From Anaerolineales bacterium (GTDB taxonomy: Bacteria > Chloroflexota > Anaerolineae > Anaerolineales > E44-bin32): a stretch of DNA of 64,000 bases. A program made the translations under genes and the position numbers. The first letter of the stretch is position 1, and each line of letters opens with the position of its first letter. Under the pieces are notes generated by a model. It saw only the letters and a program-made list of their open reading frames with translations. It did not search any database and was not told where the DNA came from. The stretch covers positions 4,888 through 68,887 of the forward strand of contig JBARSI010000155.1 of NCBI GenBank assembly GCA_049644665.1, given 5' to 3'. Shown piece by piece: positions 30,801-44,080 of this stretch.

Positions 30801-30961
30801 ACGGCAGACGGAGCACACCCCCCCGCCCGTAGCTTTCCGATACTCGAAATTCATCGATTAACATCAAGAAAACATCCGATAGACGCTTATGTATAATTAT
30901 TTTTGCAGGGATGGATGTCGCCATTGGTATGTGACACCCGTCACATTGTCAGGGCGACCTT

Positions 30962-31000
30962 TTGAGTTAATATAAGGGTACCCTAATTATAGGGTTCCCT
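30962..31000 (+). promoter_or_regulatory. Candidate promoter (TTGAGT ... ATTATA) overlapped by tandem AGGGTACCCT / AGGGTTCCCT dyads. This is a possible operator of the downstream DtxR-like regulator.
   Basis: A perfect 10-bp palindrome AGGGTACCCT (~30975-30984) is followed by a 6-bp AT spacer and the near-copy AGGGTTCCCT (~30991-31000). It lies about 40 nt upstream of ATG 31040. Confidence 0.3.
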
Positions 31001-31039: not shown

Positions 31040-31726
31040 ATGAAAGAGCTGCATGAGTTCGCCGAGAGCGAAGAGATGTATTTGAAGACAATTGCCGAGA
31101 TTTCTCGTCATGGAAATCTTGTTCCGGTTACAAATATCGCTGACCGGCTTCGTATCTCGACCGTTTCCGCAAGCGAAATGGTACACCGCCTGCAGGATCG
31201 CGGTTTGCTTGAGCACACACCATACAAGGGTGTGAGGCTGACGGCTGATGGCCGGGATCGGGCGAATGGCATACTGCGCCGACACCGCTTATGGGAATGC
31301 TTTTTGATGGAACACCTCGAGCTTCCTTGGAATCTGGTACACGATCTTGCCTGCAAATTAGAGCATGTTAGCGAGGATGTGTTGACGGATGCATTGGATG
31401 AGTTCCTTGGCCTCCCTTCTTTTTGCCCACATGGCAACCCCATCCCGCCCTCCCGTGGTGTCCTTGAAATTAGGGCGGCAACGCCGCTTTCTGATCTCGA
31501 TGTTGGACAGGAGGGAGTCGTCCTGTGTATCCGCGAGGAGGAAACTGAGATATTGAAGTATCTTGATGCTCGCACAGTCCGACCCGGAAGCCGGGTTCGA
31601 ATCGAGGAGATAGCACCGTATGATGGACCTCGCTCGGTCTTGGTGGGAGGAGAAAAGCAGGTTCTGGGCCGTGAGGTAGCAGAGCATATTCTCGTCGAGT
31701 TAGTGCACGAAAATGAAACGGAGTGA
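31040..31726 (+). CDS. DtxR/IdeR-family metal-dependent repressor with a C-terminal SH3/FeoA-like domain (Fe-type ligand set)
   Basis: The strings EEMYLKTIAEIS, RRHRLWECFL and VHDLACKLEHVS correspond to DtxR M10, H79, E83, H98, C102, E105 and H106. Confidence 0.8.
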   Translation: MKELHEFAESEEMYLKTIAEISRHGNLVPVTNIADRLRISTVSASEMVHRLQDRGLLEHTPYKGVRLTADGRDRANGILRRHRLWECFLMEHLELPWNLVHDLACKLEHVSEDVLTDALDEFLGLPSFCPHGNPIPPSRGVLEIRAATPLSDLDVGQEGVVLCIREEETEILKYLDARTVRPGSRVRIEEIAPYDGPRSVLVGGEKQVLGREVAEHILVELVHENETE

Positions 31727-31729
31727 CTT

Positions 31730-32149
31730 TTGAGCCCAGACACAGAACGCGAATATAAAATCAGACTTCTCGGCGATGTGCCATCTGGTGGTCGCGTGCG
31801 CATGGTTGGGTTTGCGCGCCATGGCAGGAGATCTCGGCGCCTGGCAGAAATGGGAATTAACCCTGGTACTGAAATCACGGTTATTCAGGCGGATCCCGGG
31901 CAACCGCTGTTGCTGAGGGTGCGCGGATCACAGTTGGCGATTGATCGCATGGTAGCTAATCATTTACTCGTCGTCCCTCTGGAGGCGATGCCTAAATTGT
32001 TACATGGGTGGAGGGGCTGGCACCGCCGCGGCCGCGGGGGTGGTCCAAGAGGGCGCGGGTGGAGAAGCGGCCGACCTCGAAGGGGGAGAAATAAAGCATT
32101 CCATGATGTTGCCCCGCTGCGAGCCGATAGAGATGAAGATGAAGCGTAA
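31730..32149 (+). CDS. feoA: FeoA-domain protein with a 55-aa Arg/Gly-rich C-terminal tail
   Basis: TTG start. FeoA fold string VRMVGFARHGRRSRRLAEMGINPGTEITVIQADPGQPLLLRVRGSQLAIDRMVANHLLV. There is no stop until 32149. Confidence 0.65.
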   Translation: MSPDTEREYKIRLLGDVPSGGRVRMVGFARHGRRSRRLAEMGINPGTEITVIQADPGQPLLLRVRGSQLAIDRMVANHLLVVPLEAMPKLLHGWRGWHRRGRGGGPRGRGWRSGRPRRGRNKAFHDVAPLRADRDEDEA

Positions 32150-32681
32150 TGCGGATCTAATAATTGCTTTGGCCGGCAACCCAAATGCCGGAAAAACCAC
32201 GGTATTTAATCGACTCACCGGCTCGCGGCAGCATACCGGGAACTGGCCCGGAAAAACGATTGAACGGAAAAGCGGGCGATACAAGCACGCCGGCTTGTCG
32301 ATAGAGGTCGTTGACCTTCCGGGGACGTACAGTCTGGCGGCGTATTCCGAAGAGGAGATTGTGGCGCGCGATTTTCTACTTGAGGGACAATCGGACGCCG
32401 TTGTGGTCGTGGTAGACGCCTCAAATCTTGAGCGAAACTTATATCTTGTAGTGCAGATCCTTGAGTTGCAGCTTCCAGTCCTCGTAGCTTTGAACATGAC
32501 GGATATGGCAGAGATGATTGGTTTCGAGATTGATGTCGAAAAAATGTCAGATGGGCTGGGCGGTGTCCCGGTGATCCGAATGGCAGCCGCTCGCGGGATG
32601 GGGATTGAAGAATTGAAAGAAGCGATACTCCTTTACACGAAAGAACAAGTCATAAACCCTTCGCCGGACCCGATTGTATGA
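32133..32681 (+). CDS. feoB: FeoB N-terminal GTPase domain as a stand-alone ORF
   Basis: G1 is GNPNAGKT, G3 is DLPG and G4 is NMTD. Ends with an ATGA overlap onto the next ORF. The start is ambiguous (32103, 32133 or 32139). Confidence 0.8.
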   Translation: MKMKRNADLIIALAGNPNAGKTTVFNRLTGSRQHTGNWPGKTIERKSGRYKHAGLSIEVVDLPGTYSLAAYSEEEIVARDFLLEGQSDAVVVVVDASNLERNLYLVVQILELQLPVLVALNMTDMAEMIGFEIDVEKMSDGLGGVPVIRMAAARGMGIEELKEAILLYTKEQVINPSPDPIV

Positions 32682-34378
32682 CGAACCCTGACTCCAAACC
32701 TGCTTTTCAGATCGATTATGGACTTGTGATCGAGCCTGAAATTGAGAAACTGAGAGCGCTCATTGAAGAGCGCTTCGTGCTCCCGGATCAAATTAAATCG
32801 CGCTGGCTTGCTGTAAAGGCGCTTGAAGGGGAGACAGATCTTCTCGAGCACTTTCTCGGTGTCGAAGATGCCCGTGTTGTACTCGCACAGGTTCATACGA
32901 TCCGCAAGCGGCTCGAGGCGCAGATCCCCGAAGGGCTGGAGATTGCCATTGCTGACGGCCGCTATGAGCGTGTGGGTAGGATTGTGGAACATTCACTTAC
33001 GCGCCCTAAGGAACCTGCCCACTCGCGCGCAGAGCAGGCAGACCGGATTGTCACTCATCCGTGGTTGGGAATCCCGATATTTATGGTCGTGATGTATCTG
33101 GTCTTCAGCCTGGTTGTGAACGTATCAGAGCCGTACCTGGAGTGGATCGACGCGGTTATTTCGGGGCCGATTTCAAGCTGGGCAGGAGCTTTGCTTTCTC
33201 TAATTGGTGCCTCCACCTGGTTGCGTGGGTTAATCCTGGATGGCGCGATTGCGGGCGTCGGTGGTGTTCTGATTTTTGTCCCAGGTCTCGTGGTTTTGTT
33301 TGCTTTCATCGGTCTACTAGAGGATAGCGGGTATTTGGCCCGTATAGCGTTTGTGATGAATCGCTTCCTCGCATTCTTGGGCCTAAACGGTAAGAGCTTT
33401 GTGCCATTAATTCTTGGCTTTGGCTGTGCGGTCCCAGGGATTTATGCCACGCGAACGCTGGAGGGACGCCGTGACCGTTTACTCACGGCGTTGCTGGTGC
33501 CGTTGATGTCGTGCTCGGCGCGGCTTCCTGTGTATGTTGTGTTTGGGATGGCTTTCTTCGGCCGAAGCGCGGATCGGGTCATATGGGGTTTATACGCGCT
33601 CGGAATTGCAATGGCGGTCTTGTTGGGTTTTCTATACTCGCGCACGTTGCTTCGATCTTCTGAAGAGATGGCTTTCCTGATGGAGTTGCCCTCTTATCGC
33701 CTGCCAAGAGTGAGCAATTTGTGGATCCATGTCTCGCTGAGGACGGGCGAATTTCTGCGCAACGCAGGGACATTAATCCTGGCTGCATCTCTGGCTGTAT
33801 GGCTGCTTCTGAACGTTCCGCCTAAAGCTACAGAATTAGAGCAGAGCGCATTTGGGAAAGTCAGCGGTTTTGTCGCCCCCGTGCTGAAACCAACGGGTTT
33901 TGGGACCTGGGAGGCTTCAGGATCGCTATTAACAGGCATGGTCGCCAAAGAGCTTGTGATCGCGACGATGACACAGATCTATCTGGATGAGCCCGGAGAG
34001 AGCGAAGCAGAAAGTGAGATCGATCCGTTTCAGGACCTGGTAGATATTGGAAGGGGCTTTGTCGGGGCTACTATTCGCGCAGGGGAGCGGTTATTGGACA
34101 CCCTCACTCCCGGGGTCCAACTCTTTGGAGGCGAAGGCGAGAGAGAAGAAGAGGGTACGGCACTCAGTTTTGTATTACACGAGTCCTTCACCCCTCTTTC
34201 CGCTCTGGCGTTCATCGTATTCGTCTCGCTTTACACGCCCTGCATGGCCACGCTGGGGGCCATCCGCGCGGAATTCGGTGGGTGGTGGGCGGTCTTTTCC
34301 GCGGTAAGCCAGACCGGGATGGCCTGGCTTGTAGCGACGCTTATTTTTCAACTGGGCCATTTGTTAGGTTTTTCCTAA
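32678..34378 (+). CDS. feoB: FeoB helical (GDI-like) domain plus membrane domain
   Basis: About 10 helices with the Gate motifs GFGCAVPGIYATRTL and LYTPCMATLGAI. Confidence 0.85.
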   Translation: MTNPDSKPAFQIDYGLVIEPEIEKLRALIEERFVLPDQIKSRWLAVKALEGETDLLEHFLGVEDARVVLAQVHTIRKRLEAQIPEGLEIAIADGRYERVGRIVEHSLTRPKEPAHSRAEQADRIVTHPWLGIPIFMVVMYLVFSLVVNVSEPYLEWIDAVISGPISSWAGALLSLIGASTWLRGLILDGAIAGVGGVLIFVPGLVVLFAFIGLLEDSGYLARIAFVMNRFLAFLGLNGKSFVPLILGFGCAVPGIYATRTLEGRRDRLLTALLVPLMSCSARLPVYVVFGMAFFGRSADRVIWGLYALGIAMAVLLGFLYSRTLLRSSEEMAFLMELPSYRLPRVSNLWIHVSLRTGEFLRNAGTLILAASLAVWLLLNVPPKATELEQSAFGKVSGFVAPVLKPTGFGTWEASGSLLTGMVAKELVIATMTQIYLDEPGESEAESEIDPFQDLVDIGRGFVGATIRAGERLLDTLTPGVQLFGGEGEREEEGTALSFVLHESFTPLSALAFIVFVSLYTPCMATLGAIRAEFGGWWAVFSAVSQTGMAWLVATLIFQLGHLLGFS

Positions 34379-34398
34379 GCGAGGAACAGAAAGAATCT

Positions 34399-34698
34399 AT
34401 GCTGGCACAAATCCTGGCGGAATTTGATCGCGAACGAAGCCCTCTATCGAGCCGTGAGTTGGCAAGTGTGCTCGGCAAAGACCTCGCAGCAATTGAGGGA
34501 ATGCTTGAAACGCTGGTGAGGTCAGGACGGTTGGTGGAACTGGGGAATGATGGACCCTGTGATAAATGTCCAGCACAAGGTCTTTGTATTGTTCTCCCAC
34601 TTGAGGGGCGCCGATTTTACCTTGTGCCGCACGAAGGGACGGAGATCCTCGAAGAACACGGATATTGTTGGGAAGCAAGAGATCGAGGAAGGGCATAG
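34399..34698 (+). CDS. feoC: FeoC-like small winged-helix protein with a Cys cluster
   Basis: MLAQILAEFDRERSPLSSRELASVLGKDLAAIEGMLETLVRSGRLV followed by GPCDKCPAQGLC. SD gaggaaca lies upstream of ATG 34399. Confidence 0.6.
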   Translation: MLAQILAEFDRERSPLSSRELASVLGKDLAAIEGMLETLVRSGRLVELGNDGPCDKCPAQGLCIVLPLEGRRFYLVPHEGTEILEEHGYCWEARDRGRA

Positions 34699-35459
34699 TG
34701 AACCTGTATTCTTGGAACGTTAACGGCATACGCGCGGCCCAGAAGAAGGGATTCTTGGAATGGGTGACCAAGACGCGCCCTGATGTGATTTGCCTCCAGG
34801 AGACAAAGGCGCAACCCGAGCAACTGGATCAAACTTTGCTCGAGCCAGAGGGCTACAAATCTTATTGGGCATCGGCAGAACGCAAAGGGTACAGCGGGGT
34901 CGCTCTGTATACCCGAATTGAACCGATGAGTGTGCAGGTGGGCCTTAGGATAGAGGAGTTCGACCGCGAGGGCCGAACCATCCTGGCAGATTACGATGAT
35001 TTTGTCCTGCTGACGACCTATGTTCCTAACGGCTCCCGCGACCACAGTCGGGTTCCTTTCAAAATGGCATATAAAAAGGCGCTGCTCGATACTTGCAACG
35101 CCCTGCGATCCGAAGGCCGCAGCGTAATATTCTGTGGTGATATCAACACGGCTCATCGCGAGATAGACCTGGCGCGCCCCAAACAGAACCAGAAATCGAC
35201 CGGCTTCCTCCCCGTCGAGAGGGAGTGGATCGATGCCGTCGTCGAACAAGGCTACATCGACACCTTCCGCGAACAGCACCCCGAGCGTGCCGCGTATAGC
35301 TGGTGGGCTTATTGGGGCGGAGCGCGCGAGCGCGATGTGGGTTGGCGGCTGGACTACTTCTTCGTCACCGCGGATCTCGCAGAAAATATTATCTCCGCTG
35401 AAATACATCTTGACGTCCTTGGCTCGGATCATTGCCCGGTCAGCCTGACGCTCCGTTGA
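34698..35459 (+). CDS. xth: Exodeoxyribonuclease III
   Basis: Contains NVNGIRA, CLQETK, GDINTAHREIDL and SDHCPV. GTG 34698 overlaps the feoC stop by 1 nt and follows GAGGAAGGG. Confidence 0.9.
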   Translation: MNLYSWNVNGIRAAQKKGFLEWVTKTRPDVICLQETKAQPEQLDQTLLEPEGYKSYWASAERKGYSGVALYTRIEPMSVQVGLRIEEFDREGRTILADYDDFVLLTTYVPNGSRDHSRVPFKMAYKKALLDTCNALRSEGRSVIFCGDINTAHREIDLARPKQNQKSTGFLPVEREWIDAVVEQGYIDTFREQHPERAAYSWWAYWGGARERDVGWRLDYFFVTADLAENIISAEIHLDVLGSDHCPVSLTLR

Positions 35460-35534
35460 TGTACGATCTGGGTTAAACGGTCTTCTCCCTCGATCGAGTT
35501 ACCCCTTATTCCCCAAAATAGATTGCACCCGCTC

Positions 35535-35586
35535 TTGACAGACGCACACTTTAATGCAAGATAGTAGTTAGTAGACGAACTACTAT
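35535..35586 (+). promoter_or_regulatory. Candidate promoter (TTGACA -35) with a perfect 9-bp inverted repeat, ATAGTAGTT-N8-AACTACTAT, over the -10/TSS region
   Basis: TTGACA lies at ~35535-35540. The dyad lies at ~35561-35586, 17 nt upstream of the trmB-like ATG. Confidence 0.45.
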
Positions 35587-35602
35587 TCTGGGCGAGGCGG
35601 AT

Positions 35603-36406
35603 ATGGATCTGGTTGCTGAGTTAAATAGCATTGGTTTTACAGAATCTGAGGCGAAGGTGTACCTCGTATTGCTGCGCAACAACCCGGCCACGGGCTATCA
35701 ATTAAGTAAAGTGTCTGGTGTGCCGCGCTCGATGGTGTATGAGGCCCTCGGCCGCCTTGACGCGCGTGGTGCAGTGTTGAAATCTGCCGAGGCGAAAGCC
35801 ACGCTCTATCGTCCCCTCCCTCCGGAGGCCTTGTTAGAGAGCGTGAACATGGAGCACCACAGAAAGATGCAGTCGCTTTCAGGCGGCCTCTCTCGCATCT
35901 ATGAAACCGGATCGGGGGATCTTCTCTGGACGATTACGGGAGAGACTTCAGCGATCTCCTATGCCGCCGATATGATTCAATCGGCACAGACCGAGTTAAT
36001 GCTTGTGCTCTCTGACCCGGGGTTGATGGAACTTCAAGATGTGGTGCAGGTTGCATGCGATCGCGGTGTTCGCGTAAGTGCTTTGCTCACGGGCGACCTT
36101 AAGTTGGGGTGCGGAGAGGTGGCGTACCACCCGCCGCATGAGAGTGAGCTGCAGGAATTAACCGACACCATTGTTGTGGTGGCAGATGAGCAGGAAGCTT
36201 TGATTGCCAGCGGGAACGAAGAGATGAGCGCCACGGTCACAACCAATCGCAACCTGGTCTTGATCGCCCGCCAATTTGTCTGGATGGAATTGTTTGCTCA
36301 GCGAATCTACTCTCGCCTTGATAAGGATTTGATTGCCAAATTAAACCCAGAGGACCAAAAGCTAATTAATGGATTCGCACCAGTGATGGGAAAGCGGGTG
36401 GGCTGA
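35603..36406 (+). CDS. TrmB-family transcriptional regulator
   Basis: N-terminal HTH LNSIGFTESEAKVYLVLLRNNPATGYQLSKVSGVPRSMVYEALGRLDARGAV, plus a TrmB-type C-terminal domain. Confidence 0.8.
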   Translation: MDLVAELNSIGFTESEAKVYLVLLRNNPATGYQLSKVSGVPRSMVYEALGRLDARGAVLKSAEAKATLYRPLPPEALLESVNMEHHRKMQSLSGGLSRIYETGSGDLLWTITGETSAISYAADMIQSAQTELMLVLSDPGLMELQDVVQVACDRGVRVSALLTGDLKLGCGEVAYHPPHESELQELTDTIVVVADEQEALIASGNEEMSATVTTNRNLVLIARQFVWMELFAQRIYSRLDKDLIAKLNPEDQKLINGFAPVMGKRVG

Positions 36407-36407
36407 A

Positions 36408-37157
36408 ATGGAAGCATCCCTATTAAATGCCTTCTGGGCGGCAGTGATCACCACGTTGGCGACGGGGCTTGGCGGGTTGCCCTTCGTCTTTATGCGCCGT
36501 TTTCCTGCCCGGCTTGCTCACTTGGCATGGGCAGTCGCCGGCGGGATGATGCTTGCGGCGTCTGTTTTTAACCTGATCTTCCCCGGGATCGAGGATGGTG
36601 GATTCAACATCGTAGCCGTCGGCATGCTCGCTGGAGCCCTGATCTTCGGCCTGGCCTCGCGGCGGATAGCGCACCACGATTTTACAATAAGCGGGGTGAG
36701 CGGCGCGGGAGGGAATCGCATCGCTCTGGTTCTTGGGACAATGTTCTTCCACAGCTTTCCCGAAGGCCTGGCGGTAGGCGTAGCTTTCGGATCGGGGGAA
36801 ACCCACCTGGGCATAATCATCACTATCGCCATCGCAATTCACAACATACCCGAGGGAATTGCGGTCTCACTGCCGCTGCGCGCCGAGGGGGTCAGCGGCT
36901 GGAAGTGTGTCGGCTGGTCAATATTCTCGAGCTTGCCTCAGCCGATAGCGGTGATTCCAGCCTACCTGGCCGTGGTTGCATTTCGACCGATTCTTCCCTT
37001 CGCCTTTGGTTTCGCAGCCGGGGCGATGTTCTTTCTCGTCCTCAGCGAGATGATCCCGGAGAGCCTGGCCAGCGATGTGCAGCGGCAAACGAGCGCGCTG
37101 GCAGCAATGGGCGGATTCATCGCCATGATGCTCTTTCAGAACGTATTCATTATGTGA
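36408..37157 (+). CDS. zupT: ZIP-family divalent metal transporter (ZupT-like)
   Basis: Contains HSFPEGLAVG and HNIPEGIAV, with 8 helices. Starts 1 nt after the regulator's stop. Confidence 0.85.
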   Translation: MEASLLNAFWAAVITTLATGLGGLPFVFMRRFPARLAHLAWAVAGGMMLAASVFNLIFPGIEDGGFNIVAVGMLAGALIFGLASRRIAHHDFTISGVSGAGGNRIALVLGTMFFHSFPEGLAVGVAFGSGETHLGIIITIAIAIHNIPEGIAVSLPLRAEGVSGWKCVGWSIFSSLPQPIAVIPAYLAVVAFRPILPFAFGFAAGAMFFLVLSEMIPESLASDVQRQTSALAAMGGFIAMMLFQNVFIM

Positions 37158-37170
37158 TCCTGTCCTCCTC

Positions 37171-37200
37171 TTGTAATTTAGTTTCAACTAATATTATAAT
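37171..37200 (+). promoter_or_regulatory. Sigma-70-type promoter (TTGTAA-N18-TATAAT) with the inverted repeat TTAGTT-tc-AACTAA in the spacer
   Basis: The repeat sits at ~37178-37191, between the -35 (37171-76) and the -10 (37195-200). The leader to ATG 37357 is about 150 nt. Confidence 0.5.
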
Positions 37201-37356
37201 AAGGCCATACTTAATTCTCGAATTGGTTGATCCGCTTCACCATGTTGAGAATCTCCACAGGACCACCCGCGCTCAGGGCGTTAAGGGGCACGGAGGGATT
37301 CTTACAGGGGTTGGCCACGAGGCAGGGAATGTGTTCCGAAAGGAAACGAGAGCGGT

Positions 37357-38367
37357 ATGAGTGATTCGTTAATAACACTGTTAATTGGACTTGGCATGCT
37401 ATCTATCGGCCTGTGGTTTCTTTGGCCGGAGGACGGTCTTTTTGCGCGCTGGCAGCGGGGGCGAAAGATGAACGCCCGCATCCGCCGCGAGGACGCATTG
37501 AAACACATCCACAGCTGTGATATGGGCGGATCACCGGCATCGATCCAGAGCATTGCCGGCGCATTAGGAGTCCACCTCAACGAGGCGTTAGCTACACTAT
37601 CTGAGCTTGAAGCGCATAATTTGGCACTTATAAGCAACGGCGGTATCCGCTTGACGCCCGCAGGTCGTGAGTCGGCGCTGTATATTTTACGGGCACATCG
37701 CATGTGGGAGCGATACCTGGCAGATGAGACTGGATACAGCGAACAGGAATGGCATGATATCGCCGAGCGTTATGAACACGAACTGACACCCTCTGAGGTT
37801 GAAGCGCTCTCAGCGCGCTTGGGGTATCCCACACATGATCCACACGGGGACCCCATACCCGCGGCAGATGGTGAGATTGTCCATCATGGTGGTGAGCCGC
37901 TCACCGCAGCCGAGGTTGATGTCCCCCTGCGCATCGTACACCTTGAGGATGAGCCGGACGTGGTCTACGCTCAGCTCGTCGCCGAAGGGTTGCACCCAGG
38001 CATGATTCTGCGTCTCGTCGAACGAACGCCCGAGCGGCTGCGCTTCTGGGCCGGGGGTGACGAACACACCCTGGCTCCAGTGGTCGCGGCGAATATCTCT
38101 GTCTTGGCTCTTGCCATGGCGGAGGCTGAGGAACCCGTCGGCAAGCCGTTGAGCCACTTACAGTCCGGCGAATCAGCTGTTGTCCTATCGATTTCACCGG
38201 CAAGTCGTGGTCTGGATCGTCAACGGTTGCTCGACTTGGGCCTGTTGCCGGGAACCAAAGTGGGCGTCGAGTTGGTTGGTCCGGGTGGAGATCCGAAAGC
38301 CTACCGGATACGAGGAGCGCTGATCGCTCTGCGACAAGACCAGGCCAATCGCATATTGGTTGAATGA
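37357..38367 (+). CDS. DtxR-family regulator (Mn-type ligand set) with an N-terminal hydrophobic helix, an SH3-like domain and a terminal FeoA domain
   Basis: LITLLIGLGMLSIGLWFLW is followed by RWQRGRK. The ligand strings are REDALKHIH, RAHRMWERYL and WHDIAERYEHELT. C-terminal FeoA string: SGESAVVLSISPASRGLDRQRLLDLGLLPGTKVGVELVGPGGDPKAYRIRGALIALRQDQANRILV. Confidence 0.75.
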   Translation: MSDSLITLLIGLGMLSIGLWFLWPEDGLFARWQRGRKMNARIRREDALKHIHSCDMGGSPASIQSIAGALGVHLNEALATLSELEAHNLALISNGGIRLTPAGRESALYILRAHRMWERYLADETGYSEQEWHDIAERYEHELTPSEVEALSARLGYPTHDPHGDPIPAADGEIVHHGGEPLTAAEVDVPLRIVHLEDEPDVVYAQLVAEGLHPGMILRLVERTPERLRFWAGGDEHTLAPVVAANISVLALAMAEAEEPVGKPLSHLQSGESAVVLSISPASRGLDRQRLLDLGLLPGTKVGVELVGPGGDPKAYRIRGALIALRQDQANRILVE

Positions 38368-38379
38368 GGAGTGAGTGGG

Positions 38380-39222
38380 ATGGTAGATAAGAAAAAGAAT
38401 GCTCCGCTGGACGAATGTGCAAGCTGCCCAGTACATAATGCTGCAAACCTATTGAAGCTGGGTGTCGACATGCAGGATTGGGATTATGTCGTCGCACTGG
38501 CGGGTAATCCCAATACCGGAAAAAGTACCGTGTTTAATGCCCTCACAGGTCTACACCAGCACACAGGCAATTGGCCTGGGAAGACTGTCACCCGGGCCGA
38601 AGGTGGCTTTGAGTACGCCGATCGGCGCTTTAAATTAGTGGACCTTCCCGGCACATATTCGCTGTTATCGATCTCGCTCGATGAGGAGATCGCCCGGGAT
38701 TTCATCCTCTTTGGTCAACCGGACGTCACCGTGGTGGTTGTGGACGCAACTCGATTGGAGCGGAATCTGAACCTGGTGATCCAGGTATTGGAGATTACCG
38801 ATCGGGCTGTCATCTGTCTGAATTTAATGGACGAGGCTCACCGCCACGGGTTGGTGGTGGATGAACGCAGCCTTTCACGCGATCTGGGTGTTCCTGTTGT
38901 GCCCACATCGGCGCGTTATGACAAGGGACTGGATGAATTGGTTGCAACGATTAGTAACGTCGCTTCCGGTAAGTTCGCATACCGTCCGCACAGAATCCAG
39001 GCAGTCTCGCGCGCGCTGGAAAGCTCTATCAAGACCCTAACCAAAGAAGTGAGAACGGTCTACCCGGATCTACCAAATCCCCGTTGGGTGGCGATGCGCC
39101 TCCTCGATGGAGATGAACGAATCATCGAGGCAATAATCAAGGGCGAATTGGGTGACCTGAGACAAGCGGACGATGAAATCTCGGGCGCGGACATGGGGCA
39201 GATGCAGGAGGCAGTTTCGTGA
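38380..39222 (+). CDS. FeoB-paralogue GTPase domain plus part of the helical domain, as a stand-alone ORF
   Basis: Contains [13 protein letters not shown] and NLMD. GAGGAG lies 8 nt upstream of ATG 38380. Ends in a GTGA overlap with the next ORF. Confidence 0.8.
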
Positions 39223-40658
39223 GCGGGAAGCGAGCGGCATCTCCCGAGAAACTCTTGAAGTCTGCCCAGGCACTCCGCTGGGAGGTGGGCAGCAACGTGC
39301 ATGAGGCGCTCACCGAGGCCATATACACTGACGCGGCGAGCATTGCCGATCGAGCCGTGAGACGCTCTGATGTGAGTCCGAAGTTTGATCTCGATCGGAC
39401 GATTGACAAGATCGTGACTCACCGGTTCTGGGGATTCCCGGTCATGATCCTGCTCTTCGCTCTCGTCTTCTGGATCACCATCACCGGGGCGAATGTTCCC
39501 TCTGGTTGGCTCGCCTCTCTGCTGCTTGGAAAAGGGCATCCCTGGTTGTCGGAAGTCGCCTTGTTGCTAGGCTTCCCGCTCTGGTTGAAAGGGCTGCTGA
39601 TTGACGGGATGTACCTTGCAACAGCCTGGGTTATTAGCGTGATGCTGCCACCGATGGCGATCTTCTTCCCGCTTTTCACCCTATTAGAGGACTTCGGGTA
39701 CTTGCCGCGCGTTGCTTTCAACTTGGATAACGCTTTTAAGAAATCCGGCGCTCATGGCAAACAGGCGCTCAGCATGATGATGGGCTTCGGCTGCAACGCC
39801 GCCGGTGTGATCGCAACGCGCATAATCGATAGTCCGCGCGAAAGGCTCATCGCCATCATCACCAATAACTTCGCACTCTGCAACGGCCGATGGCCGACCC
39901 AGATCCTTTTAGCGACGATCTTTATCGGCGCCCTGGTTCCCGCTCAACTCGCAGGGATCATCTCCTCCCTCGCGGTAGTTGGGATAGCCGTTTTGGGAGT
40001 CTTATTAACTTTCCTTGCCAACTTGATACTCTCGCGCACGATGCTCCGCGGGCAGCCATCCAGTTTCAGCATGGAACTTCCGCCATATCGGCCGCCGCGA
40101 ATCTTGCAGACGATCTATACCTCGCTCATAGATCGAACAATCTATGTGCTTTGGCGGGCAATCGTGTTTGCGATGCCGGCGGGCGCTGTAATCTGGTTGA
40201 GCGCGAATATCACCGTCAGTGGAGTGACACTAGCCGAGCACCTCGTTCGCTTCCTCAACCCCGCGGGCATCCTCTTAGGATTGAATGGGGTGATTTTACT
40301 GGCTTATGTCGTTGCCATCCCGGCGAATGAAATCGTCATTCCAACGATCTTGATGTTGACTGTTTTGATGACCGGCGCTTCGGGTTTTGATGCTGGGGAA
40401 GGGGTTATGTTTGAGCTTGACTCGAATGCGAGTACTTTGGCCCTGCTTCAGGCAGGAGGTTGGACATTGCTGACGGCGGTAAATTTGATGTTGTTCAGCC
40501 TGGTGCACAACCCCTGCAGTACGACAATCTACACGATCTATAAAGAAACCGGAAGTTTGAAATGGACCACCGTGGCGACGATTATGCCCGTTATATTAGG
40601 TGTTCTGATGACATTCTTTGTGGCTCAGATATGGCGGGTTGTGGCTGGTTTTCTGTGA
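39219..40658 (+). CDS. FeoB-paralogue membrane domain
   Basis: Contains [15 protein letters not shown] and [12 protein letters not shown]. About 10 helices. Confidence 0.8.
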
Positions 40659-40736
40659 TCGTATCTACGACGTGGTTGTTTGTGCCACATGTTAGTTGAC
40701 CGATCCCGAATCAGAGCGGACGAGCGGAGTTAGATT

Positions 40737-41411
40737 ATGCGCGAACAGCTAACGCATGCACACGAGGACTATCTTAAGGCCATCTATAAGTTATCGGCCA
40801 TAGGCGGGCGAGCCACGACGACGGAGCTTGCCAAGCTATTAAACGTCACCCCAGCCTCGGTCACCGGAATGGTACAGAGACTGGCGAGCGACGATCCCTC
40901 TTGGGTCGATTATCAGAAACACCGTGGGGTCTCGCTAACTCCGCAAGGAGAACGTGCGGCGCTGGAGATCATCCGCCATCATCGTTTGATAGAGATGTTC
41001 TTGCATGAGATCCTTGGTTACCCATGGGAAGAAGTACATGATGAAGCGGAACGACTGGAGCATGTGATCTCTGAGAAATTTGAGGAGCGGATCGCCAAGG
41101 TATTGGGTGACCCCACTCACGACCCTCATGGGGACCCCATCCCCACGCGCGATCTAAAAATCCCTCCAGCATGTGATATGCGCTTGAGTGATTTGCGCCC
41201 GGATCAACAGGCAATGGTCATGAGGGTGCACGATTCAGACTCTGATTTTCTACGACACCTTGCCGGGTTGGGACTGAAGCCGGAGACGAAGCTATCAATT
41301 CTGGAGCATTCCCCTTTCGACGATAACCTGAAGATTCAAGTCAACGGTCAGCCTGAGCCGATAATACTGGGGAGAAAGATCACACAGCAAGTTTTTGTAG
41401 ATATCATCTAG
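40737..41411 (+). CDS. DtxR/MntR-family repressor with an SH3/FeoA-like C-terminal domain (Mn-type ligand set)
   Basis: Contains HEDYLKAIYKLS (Asp at the DtxR M10 position), RHHRLIEMFL and VHDEAERLEHVIS (Glu at the C102 position). Confidence 0.8.
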   Translation: MREQLTHAHEDYLKAIYKLSAIGGRATTTELAKLLNVTPASVTGMVQRLASDDPSWVDYQKHRGVSLTPQGERAALEIIRHHRLIEMFLHEILGYPWEEVHDEAERLEHVISEKFEERIAKVLGDPTHDPHGDPIPTRDLKIPPACDMRLSDLRPDQQAMVMRVHDSDSDFLRHLAGLGLKPETKLSILEHSPFDDNLKIQVNGQPEPIILGRKITQQVFVDII

Positions 41412-41548: not shown

Positions 41549-44080
41549 ATGCCCATAGAAGAAGCGCTGGAACGGCTAAGGCTTGACCCAGTATTTATGA
41601 AGAATGTCTCAGCATGGGAGCGGATCACTGCTCGGCCAGCTCGCTATGCAGAATTCCCTCCGCAGGTATCTTCACGGCTGATCGACGCCTTGCGGCGCAA
41701 GGATATGGCGCCGCTATATTCGCACCAGGCTGCGGCCGTAGAGGCAGCCCTGAGGGGAGAGAATGTTGTAGTTGTTACTGGTACAGCATCCGGCAAGACG
41801 CTTTGCTACAACCTGCCGGTGCTGCATACACTGCTTTCTGACCCAGAAGCGCGCGGCCTATATCTCTTTCCTACGAAAGCACTCTCTCAGGATCAATCGG
41901 CTGGCCTAAATAGTTTCCTCGAGGCGCTGAACGCTGCCGAGCAGATCCCGGTACGGACCTATGATGGCGACACCCCGCGCGCGCGCCGCCGGGCCATACG
42001 CGATGACGTCCGCATCTTAATCACAAACCCCGACATGCTCCATGCGGGTATCTTGCCTCACCACCCGCGCTGGGCGGCATTGTTCGAGAATCTGCGCTGG
42101 GTCGTGCTCGATGAGCTGCACGTTTACAGGGGCATCTTCGGATCGAACGTCGCCAATCTCCTGCGGCGCTTGCGCCGAGTGTGTAGGTTCTACAAATCAG
42201 ACCCGACATTCATCCTCACCTCTGCCACCATCGCCAACCCGAAGGAACTGGCCGAACGCCTGATTGAATCGCCGGTGACCCTGGTGTCGCAGGACATGGA
42301 CGGCTCACCGCGGGCCGAGAAGCACGTGGTGATCTATAACCCGCCGGTCATTGATCCGGCGTTAGGGATTCGCCGGGCGTATACTCTTGAATCAACGCGT
42401 GTTGCCGAGTTGTTTCTTAAGGAAAAGGTACAGACAGTGGTGTTTGCTCGGGCGCGCATGACCACCGAGGTACTCCTTGGATATTTGCGCGATTCGTACG
42501 AACTGATGAATGGCGACCCAATTGCGATACGCGGCTATCGGGGCGGGTATCTACCGCTCGAACGCAGAGAAATTGAAAGAGGGCTGCGGAGTGGTGAGGT
42601 TCTCGGTGTGGTCGCGACGAACGCATTGGAGTTAGGCGTCGACATCGGTCAATTAGGCGCTGCCGTAATCGCCGGCTACCCGGGCACGATAGCCAGCCTT
42701 TGGCAGCAGGTGGGGCGCGCAGGCCGGCGCAGCGAGGTGTCGGCCGCGGTGCTGATCGCCTCGGCTGCCCCGCTCGATCAATTCGTAGCCACTCACCCGT
42801 TCTACTTATTTGAACGCTCGCCGGAAATGGGGTTGATCAATCCAGACAACCTGGCGATCCTGCTGCGCCATTTGCGCTGTGCTGCCTTCGAACTGCCCTT
42901 TGAAGTCGACGAGAGGTTCGGTTCTGTAGAAGACGTATCGGTGCTTCTTGATTTTCTGGCCGATGAAGGCGACCTGCATCGGTCGAATGGGAGCTATCAC
43001 TGGGTGGCTGACACCTATCCAGCAGAAGGAGTTTCACTGCGCGCAAGCAGCGATGAGACCGTGGTGATCCAGGATGTGGGCGGCGGACGACCGACTGTGA
43101 TCGGAGAGGTGGATTCTGCGACAGCCCCGATTCTGCTCCACGAGGGGGCAGTTTATATTCATGAAGGACGGACCTACCTCGTAAGAAACCTTGAGTGGGA
43201 CAAGGCCATCGCCGCGGTTGAGCCAGCCCAGCTTGACTACTACACGGATGCATCGGAGACAGTCGACCTAGAAGTGCTCAAAGTGTATGAGGCCGATGAA
43301 AATACGCCTGCAAGCCGTGCCCATGGCTGGGTGCGCGTCACGGCTCAGACCGTCTCCTATCGAAAAATCAAACGCTATACTCATGAGACTCTCGGGTATG
43401 GCGTAATTGATTTGCCGCCGCGCGAGTTTGAGACCAGTGCTTATTGGATGTGGATTGCGCCGGAGATGGTCGAGCAGATGGAGGCGGAAGGCGTACTGCT
43501 CCCGCCTCAGGATTATGGTCCCAGTTGGGCGAGCGCCCGTAAAGCTGCTCGTACAAGAGACAGCTTTCACTGTCGGCAGTGTAATGCACCGGAACGCGAG
43601 GCGAGGGCACATGACGTCCACCACATCCGGGCATTCCGCGAGTTCAATTTCATCCCCGGTGAAAATCAAAATGACCGCCTGGCGAATCAAATAGACAACC
43701 TGATCACGCTCTGTTCGCTCTGTCATCAAAGAGCCGAATCTGCGCGCGGCAAGCGCAGCGCGTTAGGTGGGTTAGCCTACGCCATTCGTAATATTGCACC
43801 GCTCTACCTGATGTGCGATCCGCGCGATCTGGGAGCACTTACGTCGGTGCGCGATAAACAGACCAGAGCGCCGACAATAACGCTCTACGATCGGATTCCG
43901 GAAGGACTTGGGTTGGCGGAGCGGCTTTATGAAATGCACGACGAATTGCTGGCCGGCGCACTCGATCTTGTGCGGGGCTGCCGTTGTCAGGATGGCTGCC
44001 CGGCTTGTGTGGGGCCGGTCGCTCCAGGCGGCGGAGAGGTGAAGGTCCTGACAGCTAGATTGCTGGATGCATTGCTCTAG
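41549..44080 (+). CDS. YprA/MrfA-type DEAD/DEAH-box helicase with a C-terminal Zn-binding DUF1998 domain and an inserted HNH nuclease motif
   Basis: Walker A is GTASGKT and the DEAD box reads VLDELH. Helicase_C string: GGYLPLERREIERGL. HNH string: CRQC..HDVHHI..DNLITLCSLCHQ. C-terminal DUF1998 string: YLMCDPRDLG..LYD..PEGLGL..GCRCQDGCPACVGP. Confidence 0.85.
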   Translation: MPIEEALERLRLDPVFMKNVSAWERITARPARYAEFPPQVSSRLIDALRRKDMAPLYSHQAAAVEAALRGENVVVVTGTASGKTLCYNLPVLHTLLSDPEARGLYLFPTKALSQDQSAGLNSFLEALNAAEQIPVRTYDGDTPRARRRAIRDDVRILITNPDMLHAGILPHHPRWAALFENLRWVVLDELHVYRGIFGSNVANLLRRLRRVCRFYKSDPTFILTSATIANPKELAERLIESPVTLVSQDMDGSPRAEKHVVIYNPPVIDPALGIRRAYTLESTRVAELFLKEKVQTVVFARARMTTEVLLGYLRDSYELMNGDPIAIRGYRGGYLPLERREIERGLRSGEVLGVVATNALELGVDIGQLGAAVIAGYPGTIASLWQQVGRAGRRSEVSAAVLIASAAPLDQFVATHPFYLFERSPEMGLINPDNLAILLRHLRCAAFELPFEVDERFGSVEDVSVLLDFLADEGDLHRSNGSYHWVADTYPAEGVSLRASSDETVVIQDVGGGRPTVIGEVDSATAPILLHEGAVYIHEGRTYLVRNLEWDKAIAAVEPAQLDYYTDASETVDLEVLKVYEADENTPASRAHGWVRVTAQTVSYRKIKRYTHETLGYGVIDLPPREFETSAYWMWIAPEMVEQMEAEGVLLPPQDYGPSWASARKAARTRDSFHCRQCNAPEREARAHDVHHIRAFREFNFIPGENQNDRLANQIDNLITLCSLCHQRAESARGKRSALGGLAYAIRNIAPLYLMCDPRDLGALTSVRDKQTRAPTITLYDRIPEGLGLAERLYEMHDELLAGALDLVRGCRCQDGCPACVGPVAPGGGEVKVLTARLLDALL

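Follow-up and report, generated by a model that had tools for sequence, protein, structure and literature searches.

What does a DtxR-like protein do when it carries a transmembrane helix at one end and a FeoA domain at the other, and is encoded directly before a divergent FeoB-type transporter that is itself split into two genes? This arrangement occurs in a divalent-metal uptake region of an Anaerolineales bacterium (assembly GCA_049644665.1, contig JBARSI010000155.1), which we analysed within a stretch of 64,000 nucleotides (nt), hereafter called the window. Open reading frame calling and a Pfam domain search on this 64-kb window were the basis of the gene order. All 12 genes that an earlier note, made from the sequence alone, had laid out between 31040 and 41411 were present on the + strand, as were the motifs it had read in three of the regulators: EEMYL and HDLACKLEH in the first (R1), EDALK and HDIAERYEH in the fusion protein (R3), and EDYLK and HDEAERLEH in the last (R4). 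The region is composed of two independent Feo-type importers and a separate TrmB-ZIP unit. For the second importer, whose transporter we call FeoB', our best full explanation, held with modest confidence, is that R4 is a Mn-type repressor, while R3 is a membrane-tethered, metal-sensing FeoA that acts post-translationally on FeoB'.

R3, FeoB' and the module they form

The features of R3 and of the two FeoB' polypeptides are as follows.

37357..38367, + strand: R3, membrane-anchored DtxR-like protein with twin SH3/FeoA domains, 336 residues (PF02742 and PF04023)
37366..37422, + strand: N-terminal transmembrane helix of R3, residues 4-22 (AlphaFold model and hydrophobicity)
37489..37866, + strand: DtxR-like core of R3, residues 45-170, a degenerate winged helix and a dimerisation/metal domain (alignment and model)
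37909..38112, + strand: first SH3 domain of R3, residues 185-252, corresponding to the DtxR ancillary domain (alignment and model)
38146..38364, + strand: C-terminal FeoA domain of R3, residues 264-336 (Pfam FeoA, PF04023, 7.6e-19)
38371..39222, + strand: FeoB' G and helical domains, a separate polypeptide of 283 residues (Pfam FeoB_N, 1.5e-60, and FeoB_Cyto)
38416..38436, + strand: CxxCPxH motif CASCPVH, FeoB' residues 16-22 (homologue alignment)
39219..40658, + strand: FeoB' permease, 479 residues (Pfam Gate twice and FeoB_C)

In the AlphaFold model of R3 (predicted local distance difference test score of 87), a transmembrane helix at residues 4-22 is followed by a basic helix (residues 28-56) that runs into DtxR helix 1, then by a winged helix, a dimerisation domain and two SH3 domains. 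The best Foldseek matches of the R3 core were Mn-bound M. tuberculosis MntR, SloR, ScaR, and DR2539 at a root-mean-square deviation of 1.3 Å. The membrane segment, which the earlier note had entered with a question mark, is real: a hydrophobic 18-mer lies about 22 residues before EDALK in 66 of 71 R3 homologues, and a hydrophobic segment was found in 127 of the 150 best cluster representatives of the family (~85%). The five homologues that have no such 18-mer have short N-termini before EDALK, from truncation at contig starts or a later choice of start codon. Since the linker behind the helix is basic (net charge +4.4) and only about three residues precede the helix, the predicted topology is N-out/C-in, with the body of the protein in the cytoplasm. 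A cleavable signal peptide was considered and is unlikely: there is no basic n-region, and the basic residues come after the helix.

The first SH3 domain is acidic (mean net charge -5) and has an invariant IVH-EDEP motif. The C-terminal FeoA domain is basic (+3.6), is conserved as well as the metal domain, and matched the FeoA proteins 2k4y, 2k5f and 7r7b in the PDB. It is the fourth domain of a 336-residue anchored protein rather than a small stand-alone FeoA, and it is the only FeoA encoded in the module; likewise, no separate FeoA gene was found in the R3-bearing modules mapped below.

The genes for the G and permease parts of FeoB' share a GTGA overlap, and the split lies after the helical domain, compared with after the G domain in the first system (FeoB1). 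The FeoB' G domain is 51% identical to that of FeoB1, and the permease shows 28% identity to FeoB1 over 334 residues. Against TIGR00437, the G part scored 210 bits and the transmembrane part 173 bits, so that the cut-off of 315.65 was not reached. The split itself lowers TIGR00437 scores, but the FeoB' permease is clearly more divergent than that of FeoB1. NCBIfam holds no model for R3 or FeoB', and a PDB sequence search with the FeoB1 and FeoB' permease parts gave no match at E <= 0.01. The N-terminal extension of FeoB' has the CxxCPxH motif followed by N-L-x-K/R-L-G, about 25 residues before the P-loop. Most of 73 FeoB' homologues across phyla have this motif, with several Gemmatimonadota as exceptions, and FeoB1 lacks it; it may serve to bind metal or a partner. 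The gate cysteines, read from translations, are retained as GFGCN and NPCS.

A scan of one genome per species gave 80 loci, which we mapped with phmmer, using the window proteins as queries. A FeoB'-type gene lies directly downstream in all 76 loci that bear R3, and at the module loci the FeoB' permease query scored ~500-780 bits versus ~100-130 for the FeoB1 query. In 53 loci across phyla two genes encode FeoB', always with ~270 + 475 residues, and in 23 loci, chiefly of Acidobacteriota and Gemmatimonadota, it is fused (~740-760 residues). The carriers belong to at least eight phyla and include Chloroflexota, Ignavibacteriota, Acidobacteriota, Gemmatimonadota, Bacteroidota (among them the cultured Maribacter caenipelagi and M. 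polysiphoniae), Verrucomicrobiota, Calditrichota and an actinobacterial bin. In 27 of the 76 loci the module is immediately preceded by a soluble R4-like gene, and 39 have one somewhere in the fetched flanks. Homologues of R3 of ~340 residues form 375 clusters at 50% identity (E <= 1e-30). The conserved unit is thus a protein with transmembrane helix, DtxR-like core, SH3 and FeoA domains, followed by a divergent FeoB.

In Actinomycetospora chlora (locus L077, 5965-9243), a soluble 239-residue DtxR-type protein and a separate 79-residue FeoA precede a split FeoB', which looks like an unfused state of the module.

A characterised relative of R3 exists in Porphyromonas gingivalis. PgMntR (PG1044), a twin-FeoA protein, is encoded in one operon with the Mn transporter FB2/FeoB2 (PMC4805248; Dashper et al. 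2005 in PMC8749426). It binds its own promoter DNA in vitro, and its second FeoA domain is needed for both DNA and Mn binding (PMC4805248). Zhang et al. noted 41 uncharacterised full-length homologues (PMC4805248), and the genera in their S1 Fig alignment, which we used for motifs and the genus list only, include Anaerolinea, Roseiflexus, Ignavibacterium, Melioribacter, Formosa and Cytophaga. Because the homologues in that figure show the same motifs as the R3 family, namely RAHRLWERYLAD, HxEDEP and CRGxxRRRLxDLG (CRGxxRRRLLDLG in S1 Fig), R3 is, by its motifs, a member of the PgMntR-like subfamily of twin-FeoA DtxR proteins. Hydrophobic N-termini are also visible among the S1 Fig homologues. 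The FeoB2 precedent that the earlier note had named is therefore closer than it had stated, as homologues from Anaerolinea, Roseiflexus, Ignavibacterium and Melioribacter stand in the same subfamily in that figure.

Like R3, PgMntR combines a DtxR-like core with two SH3/FeoA domains, the second of them basic, has Asp at the M10 position of DtxR in an ED-x-LK motif without the Tyr of the family, and is encoded alongside a FeoB-type transporter. The two differ in several respects. PgMntR is soluble, whereas R3 and ~85% of its family have an N-terminal transmembrane helix, which is not discussed in PMC4805248; the word 'transmembrane' is absent from the text of that paper. At the C102 position PgMntR has Cys and R3 has Glu. 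DNA binding in vitro is known for PgMntR, while helix 3 of the window R3 is acidic. Unlike the PgMntR operon, the window module co-encodes a separate MntR-type repressor, R4, and FB2 was reported as a single transporter whereas FeoB' is split in two genes. It is by synteny alone, through the conserved pairing, that FeoB' would be the counterpart of FB2.

Metal-ligand sites, R4 and the operator

The second Feo operon contains three further features.

37171..37200, + strand: promoter-like site of the second Feo operon, TTGTAA-18 nt-TATAAT (consensus scan, 10/12 matches)
37178..37191, unstranded: operator TTAGTTTCAACTAA (TTAG-N6-CTAA form) within the promoter spacer, the only exact match in the 64-kb window
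40737..41411, + strand: R4, soluble repressor of the DtxR/MntR type and DR2539 kind (PF01325, PF02742 and PF04023)

We aligned R1, R3 and R4 with DtxR, B. subtilis MntR, DR2539, M. tuberculosis MntR, ScaR and SloR. The DtxR and B. subtilis MntR sequences were identical to 1bi0_A and 1on1_A, and the other references came from phmmer matches in the PDB. In the column of DtxR M10, R1 has Met, R3 has Asp46, R4 has Asp11 and all six Mn regulators have Asp. In the column of C102, R1 has Cys, R3 has Glu137, R4 has Glu105 and the Mn regulators again share one residue, Glu. The columns of H79, E83, E105 and H106 are invariant throughout. The earlier note had staked its reading on the homology of these Asp and Glu residues with M10 and C102, and formal alignment does place them in those columns. 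It also agrees that R1 keeps the Met and Cys of the DtxR/IdeR primary site, and that the Asp/Glu pair in R3 and R4 is of the Mn-regulator type.

The primary site of DR2539 consists of Asp11, Glu102, Glu105 and His106, and its binuclear ancillary site of His79, Glu83, His98, Asp126, His128 and Asp130; Lys14 stands for the Glu that builds the binuclear centre of MntR (bioRxiv 10.1101/2024.02.12.579695). R3 and R4 hold every one of these site residues, including the Lys and the D-x-H-x-D motif. In R4 the ligands are D11, E105, E108 and H109 at the primary site and H82, E86, H101, D129, H131 and D133 at the ancillary site (the last three numbered by counting from THDPHGD, which starts at residue 127). 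R3 has the full Mn-type set as well, with D46, H114, E118, H133, E137, E140, H141, D161, H163 and D165. Among the 71 homologues, all of these except E137 are invariant or nearly so, as are H195 and D198; the E137 column has Glu in 56, Asp in 6 and His in 5. Of 35 R4-like neighbours of the module, 29 combine Glu at position 105 with Asp or Asn at position 11.

R4 matched PF01325 (2.1e-15) and PF02742 (6.3e-33), both over their cut-offs. Its best PDB match was DR2539 (1.2e-44), followed by M. tuberculosis MntR and ScaR. The recognition helix PASVTGM is that of DR2539 (TPASVTGM versus APASVTGM), and the two proteins also share the Asp/Glu/Glu/His primary site, the binuclear ancillary site, Lys at the Glu11 position of MntR, Gly at the Q43 position and the operator form TTAG-N6-CTAA. 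They differ in that DR2539 (PDB 8pvt/8pvz/8pw0) controls an NRAMP importer while R4 sits in a Feo-type operon, and in that the wing Tyr59 of DR2539 is His in R4. There is no strong terminator at 40658-40737, between the FeoB' permease gene and R4, and R4 is probably the last gene of the R3-feoB'-feoB' operon.

The operator lies within the spacer of the promoter-like site. The site bound by DR2539 on dr1709/mntH, ATTTTAGTCGCGCCTAAAAT, is also of the TTAG-N6-CTAA form, and DR2539 reads the operator thymines through Ala37 and Pro38 of helix 3 (bioRxiv 10.1101/2024.02.12.579695). In L001, an 89%-identical relative that we used for comparing sites and gene boundaries, the promoter block is kept and the operator arms are preserved, with an altered spacer. 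Across loci, 32 of 68 regions have an exact TTAG-N6-CTAA in the 160 nt preceding the module, where 0.22 were expected and the maximum in 500 shuffles was 3. Variants of the operator are TTAA-N6-TTAA in 10 loci (Ignavibacteriota and Bacteroidota) and TTGA-N4-TCAA in 4 loci (some Acidobacteriota). The case for the operator is one of position and cross-locus enrichment, because the statistics for the window alone were not significant (2 versus 1.5 expected with two mismatches, and 1 versus 0.43 for the exact core). Together, the match of R4 to DR2539 and a DR2539-type operator in the promoter lend in silico support to the prediction in the earlier note that the second FeoB is controlled by Mn or by a metal other than Fe. 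We consider it quite likely that R4 acts as a metal-dependent repressor at the TTAG-N6-CTAA operator.

A leader of ~150 nt (37201-37356) runs from the promoter and operator to the R3 start codon and is ~75% conserved with L001. An Rfam scan of the island at E <= 1 gave no riboswitch match in this leader. The only match in the island, to the Glutamine-II riboswitch, lies antisense in the FeoB' G gene (39072-39122, - strand) and scored 26.1 bits with a gathering score of 33; it was treated as chance.

In R3, DNA binding itself is in question. The DtxR DNA-binding domain PF01325, present in R4, gave no Pfam match in R3. Helix-turn-helix (HTH) sequences are the least conserved folded part of the R3 family, with an entropy of 2.43 bits versus 1.78 in R4-like neighbours from the same genomes, compared with 1.43 versus 1.32 bits for the metal domain. 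The HTH net charge is -0.3 in the R3 family versus +2.4 in R4-like proteins. The latter keep the DNA contacts of DR2539 (Y12, A37, P38, S40, T42, R46 and K47). At Tyr12 the R3 family has Ala in 57 of 71 members and never an aromatic residue, and the positions of Pro38 and Thr42 are variable; the window R3 has H73, L74, E76, L78, S82 and E83 at DNA-contact positions. The winged-helix fold is thus retained in the model, whereas the DR2539 contact residues are not kept. Likewise, the operator and helix 3 of R4 are conserved across phyla, but helix 3 of R3 is not. Where the earlier note had counted four regulators, the four genes are indeed present, but the R3 fusion is probably no DNA-binding regulator given the missing PF01325 and the lost DNA contacts. 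On balance, and by a small measure, we favour the view that R3 does not bind DNA.

Neighbouring iron-type and ZIP units

Upstream of the module lie the iron-type Feo system and the TrmB-ZIP unit.

30930..30945, unstranded: CRP/FNR-family palindrome TGTGA-N6-TCACA, perfect, just upstream of the -35 (read from sequence; inside an inverted repeat)
30946..30973, + strand: promoter-like site of the R1-feoA-feoB-feoC-xth operon, TTGTCA-16 nt-TAATAT (consensus match only)
30975..31000, unstranded: candidate R1 operator, 26-bp palindrome AGGGTACCCTA-N4-TAGGGTTCCCT directly past the -10 (91% complementary)
31040..31726, + strand: R1, soluble regulator of the DtxR/IdeR type (PF01325, PF02742 and PF04023)
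31730..32149, + strand: FeoA of system 1 (Pfam FeoA, 3.6e-16)
32133..32681, + strand: FeoB1 G-domain protein, a separate polypeptide of 182 residues (Pfam FeoB_N, 5e-63)
32678..34378, + strand: FeoB1 helical domain and permease, 566 residues (Pfam FeoB_Cyto, Gate twice and FeoB_C)
34399..34698, + strand: FeoC-like winged-helix protein with a Cys-rich segment (Pfam FeoC, 29.6 bits, cut-off 21)
34698..35459, + strand: Xth, exodeoxyribonuclease III (Pfam Exo_endo_phos, 4.8e-37)
35561..35586, unstranded: candidate TrmB operator, palindrome ATAGTAGTTAGT-N2-ACGAACTACTAT (92% complementary; function inferred)
35603..36406, + strand: TrmB-family regulator (Pfam TrmB and Regulator_TrmB)
36408..37157, + strand: ZIP-family (ZupT-like) divalent-metal permease (Pfam Zip, PF02535, 64 bits, cut-off 35)

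R1 resembles DtxR of C. diphtheriae and IdeR of M. tuberculosis in its three domains, the last of them a C-terminal SH3/FeoA-like domain, in its primary site of Met, Cys, Glu and His, and in its His/Glu/His ancillary ligands; unlike them, it has a ScaR/TaIdeR-like CPHG motif. Its score against the NCBIfam DtxR equivalog NF053665 was 107.6 bits, short of the cut-off of 290. By sequence, R1 belongs to the DtxR family without being an orthologue of actinobacterial DtxR. It probably acts at the 26-bp palindrome adjoining the -10 as a repressor of its own operon, and would thereby shut off R1-feoA-feoB-feoB-feoC-xth at plentiful Fe(II). This palindrome is largely kept in L001 and is a poor match to the 19-bp iron box. 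A second candidate site, TGTGA-CACCCG-TCACA, lies ~42 nt upstream of the implied R1/Feo1 transcription start, a class-II-like position. Its counterpart in L001, TATGA-CACTCG-TCATA, differs by a symmetric double change that preserves the palindrome. The site at 30930-30945 suggests that the iron-type Feo operon may also be activated by a CRP/FNR-type regulator. The feo operon of E. coli is activated by FNR.

System 1 follows the canonical FeoABC order of E. coli and Vibrio, with FeoA, a FeoB made up of G, helical, two Gate and FeoB_C domains, and FeoC. It departs from the canonical system in the split of FeoB1 after the G domain, the Arg/Gly tail of FeoA and the xth gene at the end, and it is led by a DtxR-type instead of a Fur-type regulator. 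The FeoB1 G gene, whose start was taken from the gene call in L001, shares an ATGA overlap with the permease gene, and the split is identical in the close relatives L001-L003. The permease part scored 357 bits against TIGR00437, over the cut-off of 315.65. FeoC (99 residues) is called as the same gene in L001. The start of xth overlaps the last base of the feoC stop codon, as it also does in L001, and this 1-nt overlap suggests that xth is probably co-transcribed with the iron importer genes.

The tail of FeoA1 consists of ~55 Arg/Gly-rich residues (~83-139; 31976-32149), ends in acidic DRDEDE and is kept in L001. The feoA1 gene overlaps the start of the FeoB1 G gene by 17 nt. Xth homologues were also found close to the R3-FeoB' module in three unrelated loci (L017, L025 and L049), and the presence of xth near metal importers may link metal uptake to DNA repair.

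The TrmB-like gene ends 1 nt upstream of the ZIP gene. ZIP scored 88 bits against the NCBIfam ZupT equivalog, under the cut-off. In L001 (8754-9060) the TrmB gene is cut to a short 5' remnant while the promoter region and ZIP stay, and the palindrome with 12-nt arms is also degraded. The association of ZIP with an MntR-type gene recurs outside this lineage, because ZIP stands beside an R4-like gene in two other loci: a Chloroflexota bin with the order ZIP-R4-R3-FeoB' (L051, 12-2415), and Winogradskyella with the order R4-like-ZIP (L083, 5989-7491).

The earlier note had treated the whole 10 kb as one island. Its genes are there, but the conserved functional unit is the module of three to four genes; the complete island (Feo1, xth, ZIP and module) was seen only in L001-L003, close relatives that have lost most of the TrmB gene, and more distant Chloroflexota have only the three-gene module. 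The nearest relatives are Anaerolineales metagenome bins. The flanks of the island hold ordinary chromosomal genes, for M23 peptidases, an aminotransferase, an MrfA-like helicase, a formate/nitrite transporter and a lipoyl synthase, and GC (guanine plus cytosine) content is even. A mobile-element origin is unlikely, given the uniform GC content, housekeeping flanks that are syntenic with L001 and the lack of tRNA genes. The MrfA-like helicase (843 residues, 41549-44080) is the next gene after R4, in the same position as in L001, and contains DEAD, Helicase_C, HRQ1 winged-helix and MZB zinc-binding domains with an inserted HNH nuclease.

Mechanism, alternatives and meaning

In the explanation we favour, R4 loaded with Mn(II), and perhaps with Fe(II) too, would bind TTAG-N6-CTAA in the promoter and repress R3-feoB'-feoB'-R4, itself included. 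R3 would be no classical repressor: it is held in the membrane, its metal and dimerisation core is whole, its DNA contacts are lost, and the only FeoA of the module stands at its end. Instead, it would be the FeoA partner of FeoB', with a DtxR-like core that reports cytosolic metal straight to the transporter. In the DtxR family, the SH3 domain docks on the dimerisation domain when the ancillary site binds metal (bioRxiv 10.1101/2024.02.12.579695). By analogy, metal binding may dock the first SH3 domain of R3 and so shift the FeoA domain with respect to the separate G protein. Both this protein and the permease could then be turned down within seconds, a quick response added to the slower transcriptional control by R4. 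FeoB' itself would most likely be a Mn(II) importer, because of its conserved pairing with PgMntR-family proteins, the P. gingivalis member of which accompanies the Mn transporter FeoB2. We lean, if only slightly, towards Mn as the metal transported.

Winged-helix proteins tethered by a single transmembrane helix are known in ToxR and CadC, in which the DNA-binding domain is functional and the sensor periplasmic. R3 differs from these in having only ~3 residues outside the membrane and a cytoplasmic, metalloregulator-like sensor. In the FeoAB fusions of Bacteroides fragilis and P. gingivalis, as in the R3 module, FeoA is tethered near the FeoB G domain, which argues that FeoA-FeoB proximity matters; there, FeoA is on the N-terminus of FeoB (PMC8980893), compared with a membrane-anchored DtxR-like dimer here.

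Several observations weigh against our reading. What is said here about the function of R3-family members with a transmembrane helix comes from their genes alone, and members without the helix show no more canonical an HTH than those with it. Many R3 homologues have Arg or Lys at two helix-3 positions. About half of the loci have no R4-like gene within 6 kb and yet have the operator, so R3 itself or a distant regulator must act there. PgMntR, the only characterised relative, binds promoter DNA although it lacks the Tyr12 equivalent (EDTLK; PMC4805248), and therefore loss of the canonical contacts does not prove that DNA binding is lost. As for the metal, ligand signatures are not proof of specificity. 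DR2539 has been described as a dual Mn(II)/Fe(II) repressor (PMC3327659), and PgMntR binds both metals, Fe(II) tightly (PMC4805248). Moreover, the CxxCPxH motif and gate cysteines of FeoB' are soft ligands, for which Fe(II) or Zn(II) would be a better fit than Mn(II).

R3 could thus be a genuine fourth transcription factor, a membrane-tethered, Mn-responsive DNA-binding repressor that binds the operator of the operon alone or alongside R4, with FeoA only stabilising its fold. The basic helix-3 residues of the family, the many loci with an operator and no adjacent R4-like gene, the winged helix retained in the model, and PgMntR, with the same twin-FeoA architecture, promoter binding and a second FeoA needed for it, would all fit. 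We nevertheless think this rather unlikely. Helix 3 of R3 is not conserved despite a conserved operator, while the co-encoded R4-like proteins keep the helix 3 of DR2539; the window R3 has Glu at two phosphate- or base-contact positions and Ala for Tyr12; and PF01325 was not detected. In addition, helix 1 of DR2539 faces DNA with its N-terminus, and in R3 this end is extended by the long helix to the membrane anchor; a Feo-type transporter would also be left without a FeoA partner. A different role at the membrane would be sequestration, in which R3/R4 heterodimers take the active repressor off DNA and couple transporter status to transcription. That transport proteins can sequester regulators at the membrane is established, for example for Mlc and PtsG; the PF02742 dimerisation domain is well conserved in both R3 and R4, and R3 and R4-like genes occur together in 39 of 76 loci. 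However, a nearby R4 is missing from half of the loci, and sequestration leaves the strictly conserved C-terminal FeoA and the strict adjacency of FeoB' unexplained, which makes it improbable.

It may also be that both systems import Fe(II), with FeoB' a second iron transporter of another affinity or for another condition and with R3 and R4 sensing Fe(II). This is suggested by the Fe(II) response reported for DR2539 (PMC3327659), the high Fe(II) affinity of PgMntR, a set of FeoB' cysteines that favours softer metals, and the fact that most characterised FeoBs carry iron (PMC8749426). Against it, a Met/Cys regulator and a canonical FeoABC are already in the island, so the ligand contrast is systematic, and in solved Mn sensors the Asp/Glu primary and binuclear ancillary sites are the features tied to Mn selectivity. 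The operator is of the form found on the Mn importer gene mntH in Deinococcus, and the only characterised FeoB paired with a twin-FeoA DtxR protein accumulates Mn; we therefore regard a second iron system as unlikely. That the split FeoBs and the fusion are assembly or frameshift artefacts or pseudogenes, and the island a chance juxtaposition, has next to nothing to recommend it, even though split FeoB genes are unusual and this uncultured lineage has close matches only in metagenomes. Independent assemblies show the same gene boundaries and 4-nt start/stop overlaps, a conservation that excludes a frameshift artefact; 53 loci from several phyla share the split of FeoB', every G and gate motif is intact, and the ~340-residue R3 homologues form hundreds of clusters.

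Our explanation, with R4 as the repressor and R3 as the anchored FeoA, builds on a Mn-Feo idea that has precedent: the system is a PgMntR/FeoB2-type operon combined with a DR2539-type repressor. In the literature searched, we found no description of the R3 membrane anchor, its degenerate DNA-binding surface or the CxxCPxH extension of FeoB', nor of a co-encoded DR2539-type repressor with its operator or the breadth of the module. FeoA-DtxR fusions were explicitly taken out of the data set in a survey of natural FeoA fusions (PMC8980893), and because they were discarded the DtxR-FeoA class has gone unexamined.

Bacterial metal uptake still poses the questions of how FeoA works on FeoB and of how Feo transport can be throttled quickly. 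The module is a natural experiment on both, with a FeoA hard-wired to a metal-sensing fold and to the membrane, and with a G protein and permease that can be purified separately and mixed. The anchored sensor-FeoA protein, its wide spread and the naturally split GTPase and permease make FeoA/FeoB coupling testable, and the hypothesis can be addressed directly because cultured carriers exist (Maribacter caenipelagi, M. polysiphoniae and Melioribacter roseus). Tentatively, and with less confidence than we place in the mechanism at this locus, R3 may represent a widespread class in which a metalloregulator fold has come off DNA and become a membrane-tied Mn(II) gauge that switches the FeoB' G protein and permease via FeoA, and environmental bacteria may have in the FeoB' CxxCPxH clade a major unrecognised family of Mn(II) importers. 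On that view FeoB2 of P. gingivalis, which transports Mn, may be no oddity but the tip of a large clade, possibly spanning Chloroflexota, Acidobacteriota, Gemmatimonadota, Ignavibacteriota, Bacteroidota and Verrucomicrobiota. If this is true, 'FeoB' annotations in metagenomes, for example in surveys of iron genes, would have to be read differently.

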